Positions 10,208 through 58,817 of a stretch of DNA of 64,000 nt are shown one piece after another. A program made the position numbers and the translations under genes. The notes beneath the pieces are model-generated. The model saw nothing but the letters and a program-made list of their open reading frames with translations, had not been told where the DNA came from and made no database searches. The stretch's first letter is position 1. Every line of letters begins with the position of its first letter. The stretch comes from a virus. Where the stretch lies: IMG/VR virus record IMGVR_UViG_3300037882_002241, positions 3,803 to 67,802 of that record; one strand, given 5' to 3'.

Positions 10208-10743
10208 TGTGAAACCCAATCTTCTAATAGTTTAGCTCCTTTAGAGCGGTTACAGGTTATACAAGCAGTTGTTAGGTTTGTGAGACTATTATCTCCACCT
10301 CTTGAAACTGGGTGTATATGGTCGCACTCTAATTTCTTAGATTGTTCACCACAGTAAGTGCATGTAAAATTGTCTCTTTCAAAAACGAATTCCCTAATTA
10401 TATTCCAGTCACTAGGAACATACCTATCACCATTAAATGGAACACCACGGCATCTTGAAAGATAATTTTTTAAAGCTAAATCATAAGCATCTTTATAAAA
10501 TGAGAAAAACATACCATTTTCATCTTTTTTTACAAATCTTAAAATATTTTTAGAATATTTAAGCCATTCATCATCTGTTAACCCAACAAGAAAAGCTATA
10601 TCTTCTAATTTTGGTAAATACCCTTCATTCTCCATTGAGAAACACTCTAAATCAGTTAGAATGCCCCGCTCAAAACGACTGTATGGTCTTAGAAAAGACA
10701 TCCTAGCTGAATTACTAAATGTTATGTAATCAATTTTTTTCAT
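10204..10743 (-). CDS. HNH endonuclease fused to a copy of the initiator N-terminal domain
   Basis: RDNFTCTYCG...ECDHIHPVSRGG..NL..ACITCNRSKG; N-terminus shares NEGYLP..EDIAF..GLTDDEWLKY with downstream gene. Confidence 0.85.
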   Translation of the reverse strand: MKKIDYITFSNSARMSFLRPYSRFERGILTDLECFSMENEGYLPKLEDIAFLVGLTDDEWLKYSKNILRFVKKDENGMFFSFYKDAYDLALKNYLSRCRGVPFNGDRYVPSDWNIIREFVFERDNFTCTYCGEQSKKLECDHIHPVSRGGDNSLTNLTTACITCNRSKGAKLLEDWVSQ

Positions 10744-17767: not shown

Positions 17768-18388
17768 ATGACGAATGATAAAGTAACTAAAGAATCACAA
17801 ATTACGCTATTGGACGAAATTCGTGAGATAATACTTTCACAGCCAGGTTCATTTGATATGGAGCAATGGCATTCAGAATGTGGAACGTCACATTGTCTTG
17901 CTGGGTGGGTTCAAACTTTACGCGGCGGTTATGAAGCAGAATTATCTGGGGCAGCTCATTTGCCAGATTTTACTGATTTTTTCTATTTTACAACAGATAG
18001 AGTTAGGGAGTGGCTCGATAAGCGAGCTTACGCCCTTGATGATAAATGTTTCGTAAATAGCCTGTTTGGATTTATGTCAAACAGGCTAAACACTTATTCC
18101 ACTTTAGAAGAAGTGGAAAGATTAGACGGTGGTAATATTGATTGCTATAATTGTCATGATTGTCATGATTGCACTAATTGCCGTGATTGCACTAATTGCC
18201 GTGATTGCACTAATTGCCGTGATTGCACTAATTGCACTAATTGCCGTAATTGTCATGATTGCACTAATTGTCATGATTGCACTAATTGCCGTGATTGCAC
18301 TAATTGCCGTGATTGCCGTAATTGCACTAATTGCACTAATTGCTATGATTGTCATGATTGCTATGATTGTCATGATTGTACTAATTAA
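17768..18388 (+). CDS. Protein with FDMEQWH.CGTSHCLAGW domain and 27 tandem C-x-x repeats
   Basis: Translation; 9-bp DNA repeat 18139-18384. Confidence 0.75.
   Translation: MTNDKVTKESQITLLDEIREIILSQPGSFDMEQWHSECGTSHCLAGWVQTLRGGYEAELSGAAHLPDFTDFFYFTTDRVREWLDKRAYALDDKCFVNSLFGFMSNRLNTYSTLEEVERLDGGNIDCYNCHDCHDCTNCRDCTNCRDCTNCRDCTNCTNCRNCHDCTNCHDCTNCRDCTNCRDCRNCTNCTNCYDCHDCYDCHDCTN
18139..18386. repeat. 9-bp coding tandem repeat (tgcactaat / tgccgtgat / tgtcatgat)
   Basis: Directly visible. Confidence 0.9.
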
Positions 18389-26928: not shown

Positions 26929-27088
26929 TCGTTTTTTGTGATTCTATAACTTCGTCAATCTTGGCTTTATTGTAACCGTCAATCCTAGCTTTATCTAGCT
27001 TTGATTGCTCTTGATATTGACGGATTTGCTCTATTACCCTAGAAAAAAAGGGTAATAGATTGTTAATAAACGTAAAAAACGCTATCAT
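26834..27088 (-). CDS. i-spanin (Rz-like)
   Basis: Hydrophobic N-terminus, helical periplasmic part, between holin and lipoprotein. Confidence 0.6.
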   Translation of the reverse strand: MIAFFTFINNLLPFFSRVIEQIRQYQEQSKLDKARIDGYNKAKIDEVIESQKTNVKVKEIETIINEVEPPRHNDYRDRLRNGEF

Positions 27089-47161: not shown

Positions 47162-47189
47162 GATTTTTTTCTTTTCAAAACTTTAGGAG

Positions 47190-47216
47190 AAAGAACGGGG
47201 GCTGTTACACCCCCGC
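47190..47216 (-). terminator. Intrinsic terminator after capsid block
   Basis: GCGGGG-TGTAACAG-CCCCCGTTCTTT. Confidence 0.65.
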
Positions 47217-47222
47217 TTTATT

Positions 47223-47354
47223 TTAGCAAGGCTTCGTGCCGACGCAAGGCGCAGCAGGAATAACAAGCACAAGAGCTGGCGCAGGGCAAGCTACAGGAGT
47301 GCGGACTTCAGCAGCATGGCAGCCGTTTGAAGCAGTAGTGATATAATTAGGCAT
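47223..47354 (-). CDS. 43-aa Cys/Pro-rich peptide
   Basis: MPNYITTASNGCHAAEVRTPVACPAPALVLVIPAAPCVGTKPC; AAGGA RBS; not in ORF track. Confidence 0.6.
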   Translation of the reverse strand: MPNYITTASNGCHAAEVRTPVACPAPALVLVIPAAPCVGTKPC

Positions 47355-47356
47355 AA

Positions 47357-47626
47357 TTATTTATCCTTATATGATTTGTATGGTTTTGTTTCTTTAATAG
47401 GCTCATCATTTTTGACAGGTCTATCAATATTTTCTAAGTATCCGTAGTGCATCATAGATTCTAGATAAGGAAGGCTTTCACCTGCCTCATCAAGATTATA
47501 AACTGCGCCATTTTGAAAGAACAGCTCACTTTTAGCAGCACCATAATAGAACCCTGTTAAAACTGAACCATCTTCTAAAATCTTTGTGTCACTACCAATA
47601 GATTTGATTTTGACAAATTTACTCAT
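47357..47626 (-). CDS. Hypothetical protein after capsid genes
   Basis: Coupled ORF. Confidence 0.55.
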   Translation of the reverse strand: MSKFVKIKSIGSDTKILEDGSVLTGFYYGAAKSELFFQNGAVYNLDEAGESLPYLESMMHYGYLENIDRPVKNDEPIKETKPYKSYKDK

Positions 47627-52429: not shown

Positions 52430-55372
52430 CTAAGCGCAAGGTAAGCGGATGTTATTGAGTGACACCCATAGCAAACCTCCAGCAGGGGAAGCAGCACCGT
52501 TAACGCCCAAAGTGAAATAAGGATTAACTGCTGTGTTGAATGAATCAGCATAAGCGCGAACAAACACTCCGTTTTGACCACCGACCACGCCATTAACAAA
52601 TCTAACTTGCCCGTTAACCATCTTTGCGTCACCGACTGTGCTTGCTGCTATAGGCACTGAAATAATAGGTTCACCTAGAACATTTGCGCCTGATATAAAC
52701 GCAATGTTTGGTGAGCCAGTAATGCTTGCACTAAGCTGTATTATGCCCACAATCTCAACAGCACCACGTGGGTCATCATCGAGTGTTAGGTTGCGGTATT
52801 GGCAGGTATAAGGTGCACTATAATTGGCAACAACACCAGCAACGGCAGGTAATGCCGCTGTCGCTGCTGGAGGTGTGCTACCCGCAACAGTTACGTTACG
52901 CCATTCGCCCGTATTGTGAGATTGGTCATATAGAGCTGAAAGTGCTAAAGATGGGGGGCTACCGTAACCTGCTTGGATATAAGTGCCGTCCGCAAATCTA
53001 ACGCGATTTTTTCCAATACTAATACCAGTAGCACTCGAAACCGCGCCTTCATACTTAGCAACCATGATTGCGCCAGTTGGAATTAATGAATTACCGCCGT
53101 AATAAGCAATAACAAAATCACTATCAAACGAACCACCGCCGCCCGAATATGCAGGTGGAATATAATAAAGTGCTTCCCAAACTCCGAGAGGCACAAAACG
53201 GCGACCGCCTATTGTTTGAATTTGACGAGTTACGTTTGAACCTACGTTAACGACTGGAATTTGAAAGTTAGCGGCTGGCACATTAATGTAATTATAGCCG
53301 TTGCCCCATGAAGCATAGCCGTCTGAAATACCATAAATTAACGTATTGTCATCCCATGAAACAGCAATACCTGTTGCTGAACCAAGTATCCCATTAACTG
53401 TAGTGCCACTAAAGAATGTCGAAGTTAACCAACGACCATGTTTTAAACCCTTGTGGGTAATGCCTTTGTTACGGTGTAAAGCATCTGTTTCATGGTCAGC
53501 AGGGGTTGTCATGAAGTGAGCGTCACCAGCTCTTAAAGCTTTCTGAACGCCACCGACTAGAATTTGGATTGTCGAGTTTGCACCCGTAGTTTGACGTGAA
53601 GCAATAGGCATCCAATGACATGGAACTGTAACAGCCCCAGAGTAACCGCTAATTACGAATTGTGGTGTAACCGTAGGGTTATCAATGTTCGGAACTAAGA
53701 AAAGTGTTTCATTGTCATTTAAATCAACAACAGTTGTCGAAGTTGGCACGATAGGGTGAACACCACGTAAAGCGCCACCAAACCATGCAGGCTTTTCAGC
53801 AGCTGTCATTAGACGCCATGAGCGTGCAGCCGCACCGTTAACGACGCCGACCGCCGCGCCTACTGCTCTATTAGCACTTGTTGAATCGAAATAACCTGAC
53901 GAGTTTACGTTAGGTGTTGAACCCGAATCAATCCAACGAATAGCCCCAGTAAAGCCAAATACCACTGGAATTGCGCTGTTTCCGCCTGGACAAAAGAAGT
54001 AACCCTCACCCATTGCACGTTGCTTCATAGCAGACCAAGCGTCAGATGTAATCCTACCACCGCGCCCCGTTTGAGAACATAAGCCGACAACGTCACCTGT
54101 GCCTAATGTAAAGACTGAGGCATCATCACGTTTAGCAACCATAATATAATCATTAGAATTTAAGAAAATATCTAGCGCGTTTGTATTTACAGTGTAAGGA
54201 ACGATTAAGAAGTTAGCAGGAACTGAGGTTGGTGCAGAACCCGAGACGTGTTTATAATAAAGTGTATCCCATGCGTTAAGCGGTATGCCGCCTGTAGCAA
54301 TAGAGCTACCAGCTGTAGCCGCAACAACAGCGCGAGTGCCACCGCCTGCAACTGGAACAGCGAAGCCATCAGCTGGCATGTCTATTCTAAAGTAACCGCT
54401 AGGCTCTACAGAATTAGTGCCAGTTGTCATGATATGGTAAAAGCCAACCCAACGAATCTCCCCATTAAGAGAAATCTTAGTAGCAGCCTGTGAAGAAAAT
54501 CTGTCTTGTAAATTGCGTTGCTTTTGAACTATCTGTGTCCATGAACCCCATGTAGTAGCTGAAGTTGACATACGATAATATTTGCGACCATCGTCAAGAT
54601 AAGCCTCTTGGCGGATTTGACCGCCACTCATATCACTAGCTTGACCATACTTACGAAACGTATTAACACCTACATAAGGGCTAGGCGCAGGTATGACGCC
54701 AGCAGCAACAGTCATACCAACAACAGCGGCATCTTTAAAATCAAAGTATGAACCAGCGTTTGTAAAGTCTTGTGGTAAATCGTTGGCGTTACGAGTATCA
54801 GCAGAGCCAACGGCATTAGGTATAACCACCTTGCCTGTAGGGTCAACGCCGATTGCCATCGTATTAAGAACAGAAGTTGGCGTAGTATTCGGATTTAATT
54901 TACGTAATGCAAAGCCCGAATCATTAACAACTAGGCTGTCTACTTCTAAAGTTGTAGTAGGGTCAACATTTAAACCCACGTTACCATTGCGGCGAATGTT
55001 TTCTGTAATGTCTGTTGTGCCATCAGGTGAAGTTGTCGCACCAGCAGCAGAACGCCAAAAATCAGCAGCAGCACTTGACGCCGCCTGTGATTGCCACGTA
55101 TTACCTAAAGTCTCAAATTCGCCAAATTGATTAATGCCGATTACAGTGCCATACATTGTGAATGGAACAGTGCCACTATTCTGAACGCGAACAAAAGTGC
55201 CATCAGCTTGAACCGTTGGCAAAGGTAACGTAATCGTTTGATTAGCAGTAGTTTGATTAATTTTAAAAGCAGCCGCCTTATCAACTGTATTAACAGCAGT
55301 GCCGATAACACCCCCAGCAGGTAAGTTGGCGATTAAAAGCGGGTCGACTATAAGCCTATTTGAAATATTCAT
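52430..55372 (-). CDS. Large fibre/adhesin-like virion protein with three internal repeats
   Basis: GNVGLNVDPTTTLEV and IRQEAY....YYR....TWGSW fibre motifs; three ~170-aa related domains. Confidence 0.7.
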   Translation of the reverse strand: MNISNRLIVDPLLIANLPAGGVIGTAVNTVDKAAAFKINQTTANQTITLPLPTVQADGTFVRVQNSGTVPFTMYGTVIGINQFGEFETLGNTWQSQAASSAAADFWRSAAGATTSPDGTTDITENIRRNGNVGLNVDPTTTLEVDSLVVNDSGFALRKLNPNTTPTSVLNTMAIGVDPTGKVVIPNAVGSADTRNANDLPQDFTNAGSYFDFKDAAVVGMTVAAGVIPAPSPYVGVNTFRKYGQASDMSGGQIRQEAYLDDGRKYYRMSTSATTWGSWTQIVQKQRNLQDRFSSQAATKISLNGEIRWVGFYHIMTTGTNSVEPSGYFRIDMPADGFAVPVAGGGTRAVVAATAGSSIATGGIPLNAWDTLYYKHVSGSAPTSVPANFLIVPYTVNTNALDIFLNSNDYIMVAKRDDASVFTLGTGDVVGLCSQTGRGGRITSDAWSAMKQRAMGEGYFFCPGGNSAIPVVFGFTGAIRWIDSGSTPNVNSSGYFDSTSANRAVGAAVGVVNGAAARSWRLMTAAEKPAWFGGALRGVHPIVPTSTTVVDLNDNETLFLVPNIDNPTVTPQFVISGYSGAVTVPCHWMPIASRQTTGANSTIQILVGGVQKALRAGDAHFMTTPADHETDALHRNKGITHKGLKHGRWLTSTFFSGTTVNGILGSATGIAVSWDDNTLIYGISDGYASWGNGYNYINVPAANFQIPVVNVGSNVTRQIQTIGGRRFVPLGVWEALYYIPPAYSGGGGSFDSDFVIAYYGGNSLIPTGAIMVAKYEGAVSSATGISIGKNRVRFADGTYIQAGYGSPPSLALSALYDQSHNTGEWRNVTVAGSTPPAATAALPAVAGVVANYSAPYTCQYRNLTLDDDPRGAVEIVGIIQLSASITGSPNIAFISGANVLGEPIISVPIAASTVGDAKMVNGQVRFVNGVVGGQNGVFVRAYADSFNTAVNPYFTLGVNGAASPAGGLLWVSLNNIRLPCA

Positions 55373-55755
55373 TATACGTCAATCCGTATTAAAGCGTTAG
55401 GAATAGGGTTTACAACAGAAATTGTAATAGCATTAGGGTTTTCAGCAATTAAACCATGGTCAACACGTAACATAGGAGTAAATCGAGTATCCCAAACGGT
55501 AATCTCAACAGGAGAACTACCTCTGTTATGTGTTATGATATTATTACCAGCGGTTAAGCTTTGTGAAATAGGTATAACATCGGGCGTTGCAGCAACAGAA
55601 CATTCACCAAACGTAAACCCACCTTGTGGAACATTTTGTAAATTAAAGTTTTCATCCGCATAAGTGCCACTAATAATGCCACCATCAGGACGGCGAACGA
55701 AATTCGCTTTATAAGAGCGCCCGTTAACGCAAATCCATTCTTCACAGCATGACAT
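55372..55755 (-). CDS. Structural-region protein (MSCCEEWIC; ITHNRG motif)
   Basis: Translation; RBS AAGGA. Confidence 0.6.
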   Translation of the reverse strand: MSCCEEWICVNGRSYKANFVRRPDGGIISGTYADENFNLQNVPQGGFTFGECSVAATPDVIPISQSLTAGNNIITHNRGSSPVEITVWDTRFTPMLRVDHGLIAENPNAITISVVNPIPNALIRIDV

Positions 55756-55775
55756 AGTTAAATCCTTAAATTAGA

Positions 55776-55869
55776 AGGAGCGACCCATCACTAGGCGGCT
55801 CGTTTAGGTATGCCAGACCCATTTCTAGGCGTGGCATTGGAGTAGGAGCGACCCATCACTAGGCGGCTC
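55776..55869 (-). repeat. Three tandem GNRA hairpins (core CGCCTAG(T/A)(G/A)ATGGGTC)
   Basis: Units 55776-55801 and 55844-55869 identical; middle unit keeps the core with a compensatory outer stem. Confidence 0.85.
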
Positions 55870-55878
55870 ATTGATTAG

Positions 55879-56682
55879 TTAAACTTGACGTAATCGAATT
55901 TTACGACCACGGTCATTGTATATCGGTTTTCCGTATTTAATCAAAACACGGGGATAAATTTCAGCTTTAATCGTTTGGCTTGGATTACCTAGAATAATCT
56001 GCCTTTCATTATCAGGGTCATTACACCCTATAGCAAAAGCAAAATATTGAACTTGATTGCCAATGGTTCTTGTGCTGTCACAAAACATAGGTCGGTCATT
56101 ATTTACACCTGCAAATGTTCTATTTCCACCTTGACCATTCTTACCAAGAGCTGAATGCTCTTGACCGAAAGTCACGCCGTTTAGGTTGCCATTACCGCCA
56201 CCCCAGTTTGAATTAATATCGGCAATGCGAACGATAGGGAAATTATATGCTTTGTTATTCGTATCTAAAAACCAATTTTGCAAGTCAAAAATCTGATATT
56301 GATTATTAGATATCAATTCTCGCTCTGTGATACGTTCAGGAGGTTGCGACCCGCTTCTTGTGTTATGACGACCATTGCGAACCCTTGATATATCATTAGA
56401 GCCATCCCAACTTGCAGGGTGTACCCAGCCACGCTTATTGTCGTAACGATAACGGACACCATTGCCTAAAGCACGAGAAACACCCGCAGAATAACCGCTC
56501 TTATAACGTAACAAAGCAGCAAATGGCTTTAAATCTTTCAATCTTTCCCATTCAGCTTTTGTTAATCCACCAACAGAAACAGTATCATGCTGCCCCGATT
56601 GAACACCATTAGGGTTCAAGAAAAGCCTTGCTTGTGGCAGGATTAAACCACCACCAATACTTAATGAACCACCGCTTGACAT
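55879..56682 (-). CDS. Hypothetical protein (basic, Gly/Asn/Arg-rich)
   Basis: 267 aa coupled ORF. Confidence 0.6.
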   Translation of the reverse strand: MSSGGSLSIGGGLILPQARLFLNPNGVQSGQHDTVSVGGLTKAEWERLKDLKPFAALLRYKSGYSAGVSRALGNGVRYRYDNKRGWVHPASWDGSNDISRVRNGRHNTRSGSQPPERITERELISNNQYQIFDLQNWFLDTNNKAYNFPIVRIADINSNWGGGNGNLNGVTFGQEHSALGKNGQGGNRTFAGVNNDRPMFCDSTRTIGNQVQYFAFAIGCNDPDNERQIILGNPSQTIKAEIYPRVLIKYGKPIYNDRGRKIRLRQV

Positions 56683-57476
56683 TATGCAAAAGTCCCGTGA
56701 ATGTTAGCATAAGCGTTGCCTATTGCTCTAATTTTATATTCACGGCGCAAAGTTTGCTCTTGACCACGTGATAAATTAAATTCCTTTGTTTCACCATTTA
56801 GTAAATAAGCGATTGTGCCATCGGGCATATCAACTTCAATTCGGTTAGGTGACGATTGACCGTTTGTTACGCCAGCCGCTGTGACTGTAACAGATAATAA
56901 ATCACCCGCAATTAAACCTGTATCAACAGTATCAGGCTGTCCCGCAAAATTAGGATTAGAAGCAGATAAACCAGCTCCCGCAATTTGTGGTAATGCAGAA
57001 CCAGTAACATTTACGTTATTCGAAATAACACAAGCGCCCTTTAAAATACCAGCAGGCTTAACCAAAGAAGCAACACCTGTATCATCATTTTGCCAGTAAA
57101 CTACACCATTAGGAATACCGTTTTTCTTTACAACTAATTGTGAGTAATTAACGCCATTTAAGCACCATGCAACAGGGTCACTCTCGAAATCATTATCAGG
57201 GCAATTAACTAAAGTGTTAATACTTGCAACAGGAAAAGCCGCACCAGTTGATAAATTCAAAGCGGTTGTATTTTCAGGAATGCCCGTCGTATTAGTGTCT
57301 AGCCATTGATGAACAATTCTAATTCTATCACCCGCATCAGTGCAACGATAAATAACCTCACTGTCATATTTTGGCAATGGCAACGGGTTAGGTTGTGGCG
57401 GTGGCAAATCAGGAAGCGTAACATTAGGCGCGGGGCAAGCCACGCCGTTAACTACTTGAAACATTACTTGGGTCAT
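56682..57476 (-). CDS. Putative structural protein
   Basis: Pro-rich N-terminus, paired Cys modules, beta-rich C-terminus. Confidence 0.55.
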   Translation of the reverse strand: MTQVMFQVVNGVACPAPNVTLPDLPPPQPNPLPLPKYDSEVIYRCTDAGDRIRIVHQWLDTNTTGIPENTTALNLSTGAAFPVASINTLVNCPDNDFESDPVAWCLNGVNYSQLVVKKNGIPNGVVYWQNDDTGVASLVKPAGILKGACVISNNVNVTGSALPQIAGAGLSASNPNFAGQPDTVDTGLIAGDLLSVTVTAAGVTNGQSSPNRIEVDMPDGTIAYLLNGETKEFNLSRGQEQTLRREYKIRAIGNAYANIHGTFA

Positions 57477-57479
57477 TGT

Positions 57480-58817
57480 TTAAATCTCTTGGAACATCAT
57501 ACTAGGTGATATTGTGTGTTTACTTGACGGCATTAATTCCGTCATTGCCCAAACTAGGGCATCTAATCTATCAGGTGAACCTTTGCCTTTAAACCCCATA
57601 TTGCTCATTTCAAGCATCTGTGATTCTAATGCACCAAGTCCTTTTATATGTTTAACCTTGCCCTGCTCATATAATGTAGCAACAGGTTCAGCACGAATAT
57701 GCTTGCCACGTGAAGCTGTAACAGCAGTATATGACACTCTAGCATCAACGTTACGTATGACACTTTTAACCATATCACCGCCAAAATTACTTTCAGCAAC
57801 AATCCTGTCCGCACTATATTTATAATAAGCTTGTACCGCTTGATTAGCCCATCCTTCAGGCGTTAATGAGCAAGTAACGTCGTCAATAACGTAATATAAG
57901 CCATCTTCACCAAGTCCGCAAATTACAATGCCTTGATAGTCACCAGCCTCATTGCCTTTGCCACTAGGGTCTACACCAACAATAACGCGTTTCATAACTG
58001 GCAATTCATCACCAACTGTCATATGACAATCGTCAATCATTTTACCAGTCCACAACGCGCCTTCAATATCCTCTAATATCTCACCCTCTAATTCTTGGCG
58101 ACCGATACGAGTCCCCTCATAATCTTTTTGCAAATCTTCGTAAAAGTTTTCTGAAAGGTTAGCTTTATTATCAATTGTGCGACCACGGATAATCTTAGCA
58201 TCCGCTCGCTTTATAATCTCTTTAATGGCAGGTAATGGGCGGGGAGTAGTCGAAAAGTAAATTCTAGCCTTTAGGTTTTCGCCACCGATTTTAGAACGCA
58301 TTGCAAATCGTAAATTATACAATACTGAATCTATATTTTTACCGTAAGCTGCAAATTCTTCTAAACCAGCCCAGCTAATGTTTAAGCCACGAATCCTATC
58401 AGGCTCTGTTGCATACATTAAGTAAATCATTGAGCCGTTAGCAAGGTATAGCTCACCATCACTAATTCTTAAAGCATCTTTCCAAGAACCGCCACGCAAG
58501 CATTGTGTTGGTATAATGGTTTTTAAACCACTTTCGCCATCTAGTGTGATTTTCTTTAAGTCACCATGTGTTGGTGCTATTATAACGCCCTTAGTATTAG
58601 CGTGCAGTGCAGCCTTTAAAAAGCAATTACTATTTAACGCCCATGTCTTACCAAAACCTCGACCGCATAGCCATCCATGCCATTTAAAGTCTTCAGTCTC
58701 ATCTACAATTTGATTGGGGCGGGCTTTTGTGTAAAATTCACTAGCGAAAGCAGCAACAGCCGCTTGATATGGTGATAAATTCATAAACCTTAAACGCCGT
58801 AGCTTATTAATTAGCAC
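57480..58817 (-). CDS. terL: Terminase large subunit
   Basis: CGRGFGKT Walker A, IRG...LEEFA, TTPRP, GRQELEGE, VGVDPS, AESNFGG, SPDRLDALVWA. Confidence 0.95.
   Translation of the reverse strand: MLINKLRRLRFMNLSPYQAAVAAFASEFYTKARPNQIVDETEDFKWHGWLCGRGFGKTWALNSNCFLKAALHANTKGVIIAPTHGDLKKITLDGESGLKTIIPTQCLRGGSWKDALRISDGELYLANGSMIYLMYATEPDRIRGLNISWAGLEEFAAYGKNIDSVLYNLRFAMRSKIGGENLKARIYFSTTPRPLPAIKEIIKRADAKIIRGRTIDNKANLSENFYEDLQKDYEGTRIGRQELEGEILEDIEGALWTGKMIDDCHMTVGDELPVMKRVIVGVDPSGKGNEAGDYQGIVICGLGEDGLYYVIDDVTCSLTPEGWANQAVQAYYKYSADRIVAESNFGGDMVKSVIRNVDARVSYTAVTASRGKHIRAEPVATLYEQGKVKHIKGLGALESQMLEMSNMGFKGKGSPDRLDALVWAMTELMPSSKHTISPSMMFQEI

Follow-up and report, generated by a model that had tools for sequence, protein, structure and literature searches.

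A triplicated GNRA stem-loop conserved at a gene-module junction in the late operon of an uncultured freshwater phage

Several classes of RNA hairpins are known to act in cis within phage and bacterial transcripts. The boxB hairpin of the lambda nut site has a 5-bp stem and a GNRA-like pentaloop with a boxA nearby, is located near an early promoter, and is recognized by the arginine-rich N protein, whereas the put site of HK022, which follows a promoter directly, comprises two larger stem-loops that act on the RNA polymerase. Leaky intrinsic terminators sit in phage late operons after capsid or tail genes, as exemplified by T-phi of T7, and intercistronic sites of T7 are cut by RNase III-type processing. 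In bacterial operons such as malE-malF and puf, protective 3' structures as well as RNase E sites with the motif RN|WUU are described in the excerpts of PMC5927463 used here. According to these excerpts, the REP sequences of malE-malF and the stem-loops of puf and menBCE form a barrier to PNPase and RNase II that leads to unequal message levels, and papBA provides a model of 5'-end protection (PMC5927463). The element described in this study resembles those of malE-malF, puf, and menBCE, as far as the excerpts portray them, in consisting of conserved, sometimes consecutive, GC-rich stem-loops that are located between cistrons and lack a proper U-tract (PMC5927463). It differs from them in its occurrence in an uncultured phage, its triplicated unit, its invariant imperfect core, its GNRA loops, and its confinement to one place rather than dispersal, and its function is predicted.

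The stretch of DNA analyzed, hereafter the window, is 64,000 nt long and makes up most of a 67.8-kb IMG/VR record that is approximately 79% complete. Its minus-strand operon is composed, in order, of the large terminase gene, a 264-aa gene, a 267-aa gene, an intercistronic gap, a 127-aa gene, a 980-aa gene, and the portal, protease, capsid, sheath, and baseplate genes. The gap lies approximately 4 kb into this late operon and contains three tandem hairpins, hp1 to hp3 (Table 1). All coordinates of the hairpins refer to the whole window, and the hairpins are read 5' to 3' on the minus (coding) strand.

Table 1. Features of the hairpin junction in the window and in related contigs. Gap folds and hairpins of relatives are given in the sense orientation.
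Feature	Position	Strand	Description
Large terminase gene	57480-58817	minus	Late operon, upstream of the gap
264-aa gene and large terminase gene	56682-58817	minus	Upstream members of the late operon
267-aa gene	55879-56682	minus	Directly upstream of the gap; pI 9.96; no known family
Intercistronic gap, 123 nt	55756-55878	minus	49.6% GC
hp1	55869-55846	minus	GAGC-C-GCCUA-GUGA-UGGGU-C-GCUC; 9 pairs, C.C mismatch, GNRA loop
Spacer between hp1 and hp2, 8 nt	55845-55838	minus	CUACUCCA; single-stranded
hp2	55837-55810	minus	AUGCCA-C-GCCUA-GAAA-UGGGU-C-UGGCAU; core as in hp1, different 6-bp outer stem, GNRA loop
Spacer between hp2 and hp3, 8 nt	55809-55802	minus	ACCUAAAC; single-stranded
hp3	55801-55778	minus	Letter-identical to hp1; CCUAAAC on its 5' side, CUUCUAAUUUAAGGA on its 3' side
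Shine-Dalgarno AAGGA of the 127-aa gene	55767-55763	minus	
ATG of the 127-aa gene	55755-55753	minus	
127-aa gene	55372-55755	minus	Directly downstream of the gap
980-aa all-beta protein gene	52430-55372	minus	Conserved partner of the junction
L091 gap fold			-29.8 kcal/mol; z -3.84
L100 gap fold			-29.8 kcal/mol; z -3.81
L096 gap fold			-25.2 kcal/mol; z -3.25
L092 gap fold			-23.2 kcal/mol; z -4.91
L094 gap fold			-19.3 kcal/mol; z -3.61
L098 gap fold			-17.9 kcal/mol; z -2.43
L093 gap fold			-62.3 kcal/mol; z -7.27
L098 hairpin			CUGGGACUCA-GCAA-UGGGUCCCAG
L092 hairpin			GAGGGGCUUG-GCGA-CAGGCCCCUC
L094 hairpin			GCGCUCACUA-GCAA-UGGUGGGCGC

From the upstream stop codon, the gap was found to consist of 9 nt, hp1, 8 nt, hp2, 8 nt, hp3, 10 nt, the AAGGA, 7 nt, and the ATG, with a distance of 22 nt between the foot of hp3 and the ATG of the 127-aa gene. 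Hairpins and ribosome-binding site (RBS) hence fill the whole gap, and its 3' tail is A/U-rich and single-stranded. The GC content was 58.7% in the hairpins, compared with 49.6% in the gap and 35.5% in the genome. All three hairpins share the core CGCCUA-GNRA-UGGGUC, which includes a C.C mismatch and two G.U pairs. This 16-nt core, with its mismatch and wobble pairs, does not vary among the three copies, and the changes in the loop remain GNRA. The outer stems, of 4 bp in hp1 and hp3 and of 6 bp in hp2, are unrelated in sequence, and both are fully paired. In addition, hp1 and hp3 agree in every letter over 26 nt, compared with only about half of the letters in their flanks. The distance from core to core is exactly 34 nt, a period set by the two 8-nt spacers around hp2, and Tandem Repeats Finder reported a period of 34 with 2.9 copies and 64% matches. 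A search of the window with the core pattern returned three exact matches; with up to three mismatches allowed, five matches were found where 0.58 were expected, and none of 100 shuffles reached five.

The first-pass annotation of this locus had described three tandem hairpins with an invariant core, GNRA loops, and swapped but paired outer stems, located in a 123-nt gap between the stop of the gene at 55879-56682 and the start at 55755. Both the hairpins and the size of the gap were reproduced upon re-reading of the minus strand. The annotated span of 55776-55869 was accurate at its upper bound but 2 nt too generous at its lower bound, as hp3 ends at 55778, and the distance from hp3 to the AAGGA proved to be 10 nt rather than about 8 nt.

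The hairpins form as RNA in the sense (minus) strand of the polycistronic late mRNA. When folded singly, hp1, hp2, and hp3 reached -10.7, -14.1, and -10.7 kcal/mol on the minus strand versus -7.1, -10.2, and -7.1 kcal/mol on the plus strand, and hp2 folded alone had a z score of -3.98. The whole gap reached -40.5 kcal/mol on the minus strand (z -3.09, with one of 200 shuffles as good) versus -31.8 kcal/mol on the plus strand (z -0.30). The opposite strand pairs poorly because two of the five core pairs are G.U. Among all 32-nt windows of the minus strand, hp2 ranked within the most stable 0.1% and hp1 and hp3 within the top 0.7%. Strong hairpins are not ubiquitous in the operon: only three of the 10 gaps of at least 30 nt contained one of -15 kcal/mol or below, and one of the others follows the capsid module. 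The same asymmetry was observed beyond the window: in all four relatives for which the gap was folded both ways, the sense strand folded better than the antisense strand (-25.2 versus -13.1 kcal/mol in L096, -19.3 versus -9.7 in L094, -23.2 versus -17.9 in L092, and -17.9 versus -16.5, a small difference, in L098).

Nine related contigs (L091, L092, L093, L094, L095, L096, L098, L100, and L107) were retrieved through alignment of the 980-aa protein and subsequently of its small neighbors. Seven of them were syntenic with the window. Their junction comprises an upstream gene, a gap of 56-129 nt, and either an 82-aa counterpart of the 127-aa gene or, without one, the 980-aa homolog. The other two, L095 and L107, were left out as not syntenic: the former has a 597-aa domain relative behind a 14-nt gap, the latter has a member of the 127-aa family behind a 9-nt gap followed by a 401-aa gene, and both are without the hairpin. 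Absence of the structure at this locus in related phages had been named at the outset as an observation that would count against it; a stable stem-loop was instead present in the junction gap of all seven syntenic relatives (z -2.43 to -7.27; Table 1). It starts 0-18 nt after the upstream stop codon, and the distance from the foot of the structure to the next ATG is 17-23 nt in each of the eight loci (seven relatives and the window).

The relatives differed in the form of the stem-loop. A 24-nt hairpin of the geometry seen in the window, with 10 pairs and a GNRA loop, was found in L098, L092, and L094. Its flanks align with those of hp3, with UAAAC before the hairpin and yUUAGUUUUUAGGA or CUUCUAAUUUAAGGA after it, and the alignment of the hp3 flanks with the single-hairpin gaps of L098 and L092 was recovered in alignment A5. 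A longer stem of 14-18 bp was found in L091 and L100, which have identical gaps, and in L096, and a compensatory change from C-G to G-C was observed between L091 and L096. In L093, two tandem UGCU hairpins are nested in an outer stem of 13 positions. As judged from these sequences, a single hairpin is the common state; in the window it has been amplified to three copies, and in L093 a different hairpin has been doubled.

The conservation of the hairpin involves compensatory change. Among five distinct 24-mers, 48 of 50 pair cells were paired, a percentage inflated by the choice of segments, which were picked because they fold. Eight of the 10 pairs had changed on both sides, none of 500 shuffles reached the observed value, and at most 51% of positions were paired with a slid partner. 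Independent support comes from the positional homology of the hairpin flanks. A GNRA loop was present in all six hairpin copies from four phages (five distinct sequences), four of these five sequences have the apex A-GNRA-UGG, and the stems differ almost entirely between phages. Selection on RNA structure, which had been proposed from the window alone, is backed by this cross-phage covariation together with the strand asymmetry.

Comparison with intrinsic terminators gave a mixed outcome. The GC-rich stem-loops are there (-10.7, -14.1, and -10.7 kcal/mol; 58.7% GC), but an uninterrupted U-tract is not: hp1 is followed by CUACUCCA, hp2 by ACCUAAAC, and hp3 by CUUCUAAUUU, which is U-rich but interrupted, with five U in eight positions counted from the second base. 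The earlier statements that a U-tract is missing and that the hairpins are not terminators therefore stand for hp1 and hp2, whereas hp3 may be a weak terminator. A terminator scan of the window reported no site at hp1-hp3, in part because its stem rule disallows the C.C mismatch. Also bearing on weak termination, the homologous hairpin of L092 and L098 is followed by UUAGUUUUU. The leaky terminators of phage late operons are similar to this element in their position between structural-gene modules and in their stable tetraloop hairpin. The terminator-like hairpins of this phage, by comparison, have perfect stems of 9-12 bp, whereas the stems of hp1-hp3 contain a mismatch and wobble pairs.

A stable, conserved stem-loop on the sense strand between cistrons, present in all seven syntenic relatives, is what a protective hairpin internal to an operon would look like. 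A barrier to mRNA decay, or a leaky 3'-end signal, that is internal to the operon and triplicated in this phage is the reading favoured here, held with moderate confidence. The exonuclease barrier is preferred because the layout equals that of the protective 3' structures and RNase E sites of malE-malF, puf, menBCE, and papBA, as portrayed in the excerpts (PMC5927463). The analysis itself demonstrates the structure, the strand on which it forms, a conservation with compensatory changes, and a constant position; the nucleases, the direction of stabilisation, and any termination are inferred. The hairpins, a local triplication of the 24-nt hairpin that is kept before the Ig-like and 980-aa genes, would fold in the polycistronic late mRNA. 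Endonucleolytic cleavage in the A/U-rich single-stranded tail between hp3 and the RBS, or weak termination at hp3, would generate a 3' end, and exonucleases moving 3' to 5' would then be stopped by the hairpins. As a consequence, the message of the upstream genes (terminase, 264-aa, and 267-aa) would last longer than that of the downstream genes (127-aa and 980-aa), or be more abundant, and three copies would make the barrier redundant. Among the functions listed by the first-pass annotation (antitermination, translational control, or stabiliser), it is thus the stabiliser that is favoured; a boxB site is dismissed on its features, and a protein operator is considered improbable.

Three observations argue against this reading. 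The C.C mismatch and the two G.U pairs are kept in all three copies despite the diverged outer stems and spacers, and such an invariant imperfect core fits sequence-specific recognition better than a plain barrier. Whereas the upstream gene is exchanged between the 145-aa and the 267-aa type, the downstream cassette retains the hairpin with its flanks, which fits a role as the 5'-UTR of the downstream genes equally well. The third concerns an alternative fold: owing to the identity of hp1 and hp3, pairing is possible between the 5' arm of the former and the 3' arm of the latter, and results in a rod with hp2 at its tip. This nested fold is the predicted minimum (-40.5 versus -38.4 kcal/mol for three separate hairpins), its outer pairing of hp1 with hp3 has a probability of 0.80, and it is predicted to dominate at equilibrium.

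A long irregular rod of this kind could serve as an RNase III-type processing site, where a double-strand-specific nuclease would cut and separate two messages. L093 shows the same design, with its two tandem repeats inside the outer stem and the most stable gap fold of all relatives (Table 1), and the 14-18-bp stems of L091, L100, and L096 would likewise suit such processing. However, an RNase III-type nuclease usually needs about two helical turns, and the single 10-bp hairpin of three relatives is too short for it. Furthermore, the difference of 2 kcal/mol between the two folds is within model error, and hp1 and hp2 had already formed in prefix folds before hp3 was made, which suggests that co-transcriptional folding favours the local hairpins. 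Processing by an RNase III-type nuclease is therefore regarded as distinctly improbable.

The genes upstream of the junction vary among the relatives. In L092, L094, and L098, the upstream gene encodes a 145-aa protein that is unrelated to the 267-aa protein, and no relative of the latter was found there. The 145-aa protein shares 89-94% identity among four phages and 52-54% with L094; it belongs to no family, and a small beta-sandwich is the most that the Atlas suggests. Among the relatives, upstream genes resembling the 264- and 267-aa genes of the window were found only in L093. Upstream of these, L093 also encodes an 833-aa protein (45-2546) with four DUF11 repeats and CARDB domains. The cassette of the Ig-like and 980-aa genes is located between the terminase and portal genes of a sheath-bearing phage in the window (52430-57476), and in L091-L100 it follows a weak, sub-threshold SU10-portal-like gene, a 290-440-aa gene, and the 145-aa gene. 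The cassette has therefore been exchanged between different kinds of phage, and the hairpin gap forms the junction.

Since the gap coincides with the exact point where upstream modules of the 145-aa type and the 264/267-aa type are exchanged, and holds three direct repeats with a regular 34-bp spacing, an element acting as DNA was also considered, such as a recombination junction between modules, a set of protein-binding direct repeats, a packaging site, or a single-strand initiation signal. Such an element appears highly improbable. Two G.U pairs among the five of the core make for a poor opposite strand and a poor duplex palindrome, and duplex binding sites give no reason for flanks that are self-complementary and differ from copy to copy. 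The packaging site in particular was rejected, as the element of the relatives lies in another neighborhood, next to weak, sub-threshold SU10-portal-like genes.

The downstream cassette itself is conserved. The C-terminal 80 residues of the 127-aa protein correspond to the 82-aa family that follows the hairpin in the relatives, and this family has a weak Ig-like Pfam match below threshold. The 127-aa protein is additionally extended at its N-terminus by 45 residues, which start with a Cys-rich segment (MSCCEEWIC...) and are absent from the 82-aa relatives, and the 133-aa member of the family in L107 is likewise extended. For the 980-aa protein, 38 relatives were found among metagenome proteins, and its alignment against metagenome contigs gave no match. 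The homologs P0005-P0009 share 55-61% identity with it and are encoded on contigs of up to 54.8 kb. Its AlphaFold model (pLDDT 76) had no global match in the PDB, and its N-terminus showed only a local likeness, over 102 columns, to the N-terminus of a phage tailspike.

The main rival of the decay barrier is its mirror image, in which the hairpins act as a 5'-end stabiliser or translation insulator for the downstream cassette. Cleavage or initiation upstream of the hairpins would leave them at the 5' end of the message for the 127-aa and 980-aa genes, where they would hinder 5'-end-dependent attack by RNase E, as in the papBA model (PMC5927463, excerpts), and keep the RBS free of long-range pairing. 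The narrow range of distances between hairpin foot and ATG in all eight loci is consistent with this role, as is the position of the L093 hairpins, which directly precede the 980-aa homolog. Additionally, the flanks of hp3 can be aligned with the L098 and L092 gaps despite unrelated upstream genes, which suggests that the element travels with the downstream genes. This linkage is, however, partly a product of selection, as the loci were all retrieved through the downstream genes or the 145-aa gene, and the 127-aa family member of L107 is preceded by a gap of only 9 nt without a hairpin. No upstream promoter stood out, with promoter-like matches at chance level (68 found, 62.3 expected). A 5' role is on balance considered unlikely.

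The element was also compared with known families. A scan of 55300-56300 against Rfam at E values up to 10 returned only two chance snoRNA matches of 18.1 and 13.6 bits (E 3.2 and 4.8), compared with thresholds of 47 and 100, and no further copies beyond hp1-hp3 were found in the 67.8-kb record. A pattern of two tandem cores was absent from representative genomes of 185,579 species and from 2.9 million viral contigs. No known REP or Rfam family was thus matched. REP/BIME elements are similar in being imperfect palindromes clustered in tandem in an intercistronic gap, but they occur in tens to hundreds of copies per genome and this element in one gap only; membership was ruled out by the presence of only three copies in the record and the lack of tandem matches elsewhere. 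A mini-CRISPR array was rejected on account of spacers of only 8 nt, and an N4-type hairpin promoter because no giant virion RNA polymerase gene is present and the loops have 4 nt rather than 3. The target hairpin of a diversity-generating retroelement was considered as well and set aside.

Searches for more distant relatives gave similar results. With model R1, hp1 scored 31.9 bits, and only the model's own training sequences were found in the window and related loci. None of the neighboring genes was found at 55 loci with a related terminase (up to 41% identity), where the best R1 score of 21.3 bits (E 0.073) was not significant. Among GenBank phages, no match was obtained by megablast or blastn of 55300-56800 or by tblastn of the 980-aa protein, and literature searches gave general papers, with nothing on this element or phage group. 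Two freshwater DNA sequencing runs contain small shares of the phage, and their contigs leave 55742-56277 uncovered; no RNA sequencing run containing the phage was found. Single cores were matched 31 times in viral contigs; these matches resemble chance occurrences, and 30 of them had no outer stem. The exception, at 10672-10705 of the unrelated GC-rich viral contig L010, has the 16-nt core with GAGA as its loop and lies directly after an ORF; with its 7-bp outer stem and T6 tail, it is a classical terminator.

The invariant core also raised the possibility of a multivalent operator, in which the mismatch core and GNRA loop would be bound by a phage or host protein, with three copies for cooperativity, and binding would repress translation of the 127-aa gene or modify the RNA polymerase. 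The partner would be an unrecognized RNA-binding protein of this phage group, for example the downstream Ig-like protein or the basic 267-aa protein. This is judged improbable. It would account for a 16-nt core that is identical in all copies, and for loops that stay GNRA, amid wholly different outer stems and spacers, for the identity of hp1 and hp3 over 26 nt between flanks that are only half identical, and for the recurrence of GNRA loops and of the A-GNRA-UGG apex across four phages. The 267-aa protein is indeed basic, as stated in the first-pass annotation (Table 1). Nevertheless, the stems are almost wholly different between phages, GNRA loops are common in plain stable hairpins and terminators too, and the 16-nt core occurs in the L010 terminator. 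No RNA-binding domain was found in any neighboring protein, and none of these has a recognizable family. The site is also approximately 4 kb into the operon, whereas nut and put sites lie near a promoter.

Binding by the 267-aa protein, as suggested earlier, was not supported by the relatives: L092, L094, and L098 have the homologous hairpin behind the unrelated 145-aa gene and lack any relative of the 267-aa protein, which makes it an unlikely partner. Two homologs of this protein, P0002 and P0003, share 66-69% identity with it and end at the same position, and no relatives were found in viral contigs or metagenome contigs. Its structure model had a pLDDT of 27.5 and was unusable, a search of the Atlas gave no match, and a profile search gave 13 unnamed matches, where Pfam matches on the distant ones resembled low-complexity noise.

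The boxB/nut and put sites resemble this element in that they are phage RNA hairpins with GNRA-type loops and act in cis in the nascent transcript. A boxB/nut site was ruled out by the 10-bp stems, the tetraloop, the position approximately 4 kb inside the late operon, and the lack of a conserved boxA or an N-like partner. A boxA-like string was seen at a single place, overlapping the paired 3' arm of hp3; by eye it agrees at six of eight positions, and L092 and L098 lack it. With regard to put, whose presence in Rfam is uncertain, no Rfam similarity was found, and the element has a different architecture, with three hairpins of 24-28 nt here and one in the relatives.

Taken as a class, hp1-hp3 are a real and conserved cis-RNA element that has so far had no annotation and belongs to the known operon-internal stem-loops, unusual only in its triplication with an invariant imperfect core. 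A group of uncultured freshwater phages without a cultured or GenBank relative thereby gains a cis-RNA element backed by covariation, which has been amplified from one to three copies at a site of gene-module exchange. If the element is a decay barrier, it would represent another case of phages tuning gene dosage in a long late operon through RNA stability, which would be useful for annotation and not surprising. If instead a protein recognises the core, the 24-nt unit would amount to a compact RNA tag that is multimerised in nature and has a dedicated binding protein, and a new phage RNA-protein pair would control the expression of the 980-aa virion-protein cassette.

Other hairpins and repeats were also observed in the window. 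On the minus strand at 2494-2687, inside an ORF of 181 aa (2308-2853), at least three identical 32-nt units and a fourth variant copy occur with a mostly 36-nt period. These units form the most stable local hairpins of the whole window, at -19.2 kcal/mol each, and the repeat is probably a 12-residue protein repeat. The 464-nt gap that follows the capsid module (47162-47625, minus strand) contains a hairpin with a GNRA (GAAA) loop (47491-47464) and, at 47217-47194, one that resembles a terminator and has a T/C-rich tail. Hairpins with perfect stems were located at 24166-24135 (minus strand), 18005-18089 (both strands), 27028-27060, and 16829-16798, some of them with T-rich tails and one with a UUCG loop. 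By their appearance, these look like the ordinary terminators of the phage, in a style that contrasts with the imperfect hp1-hp3.
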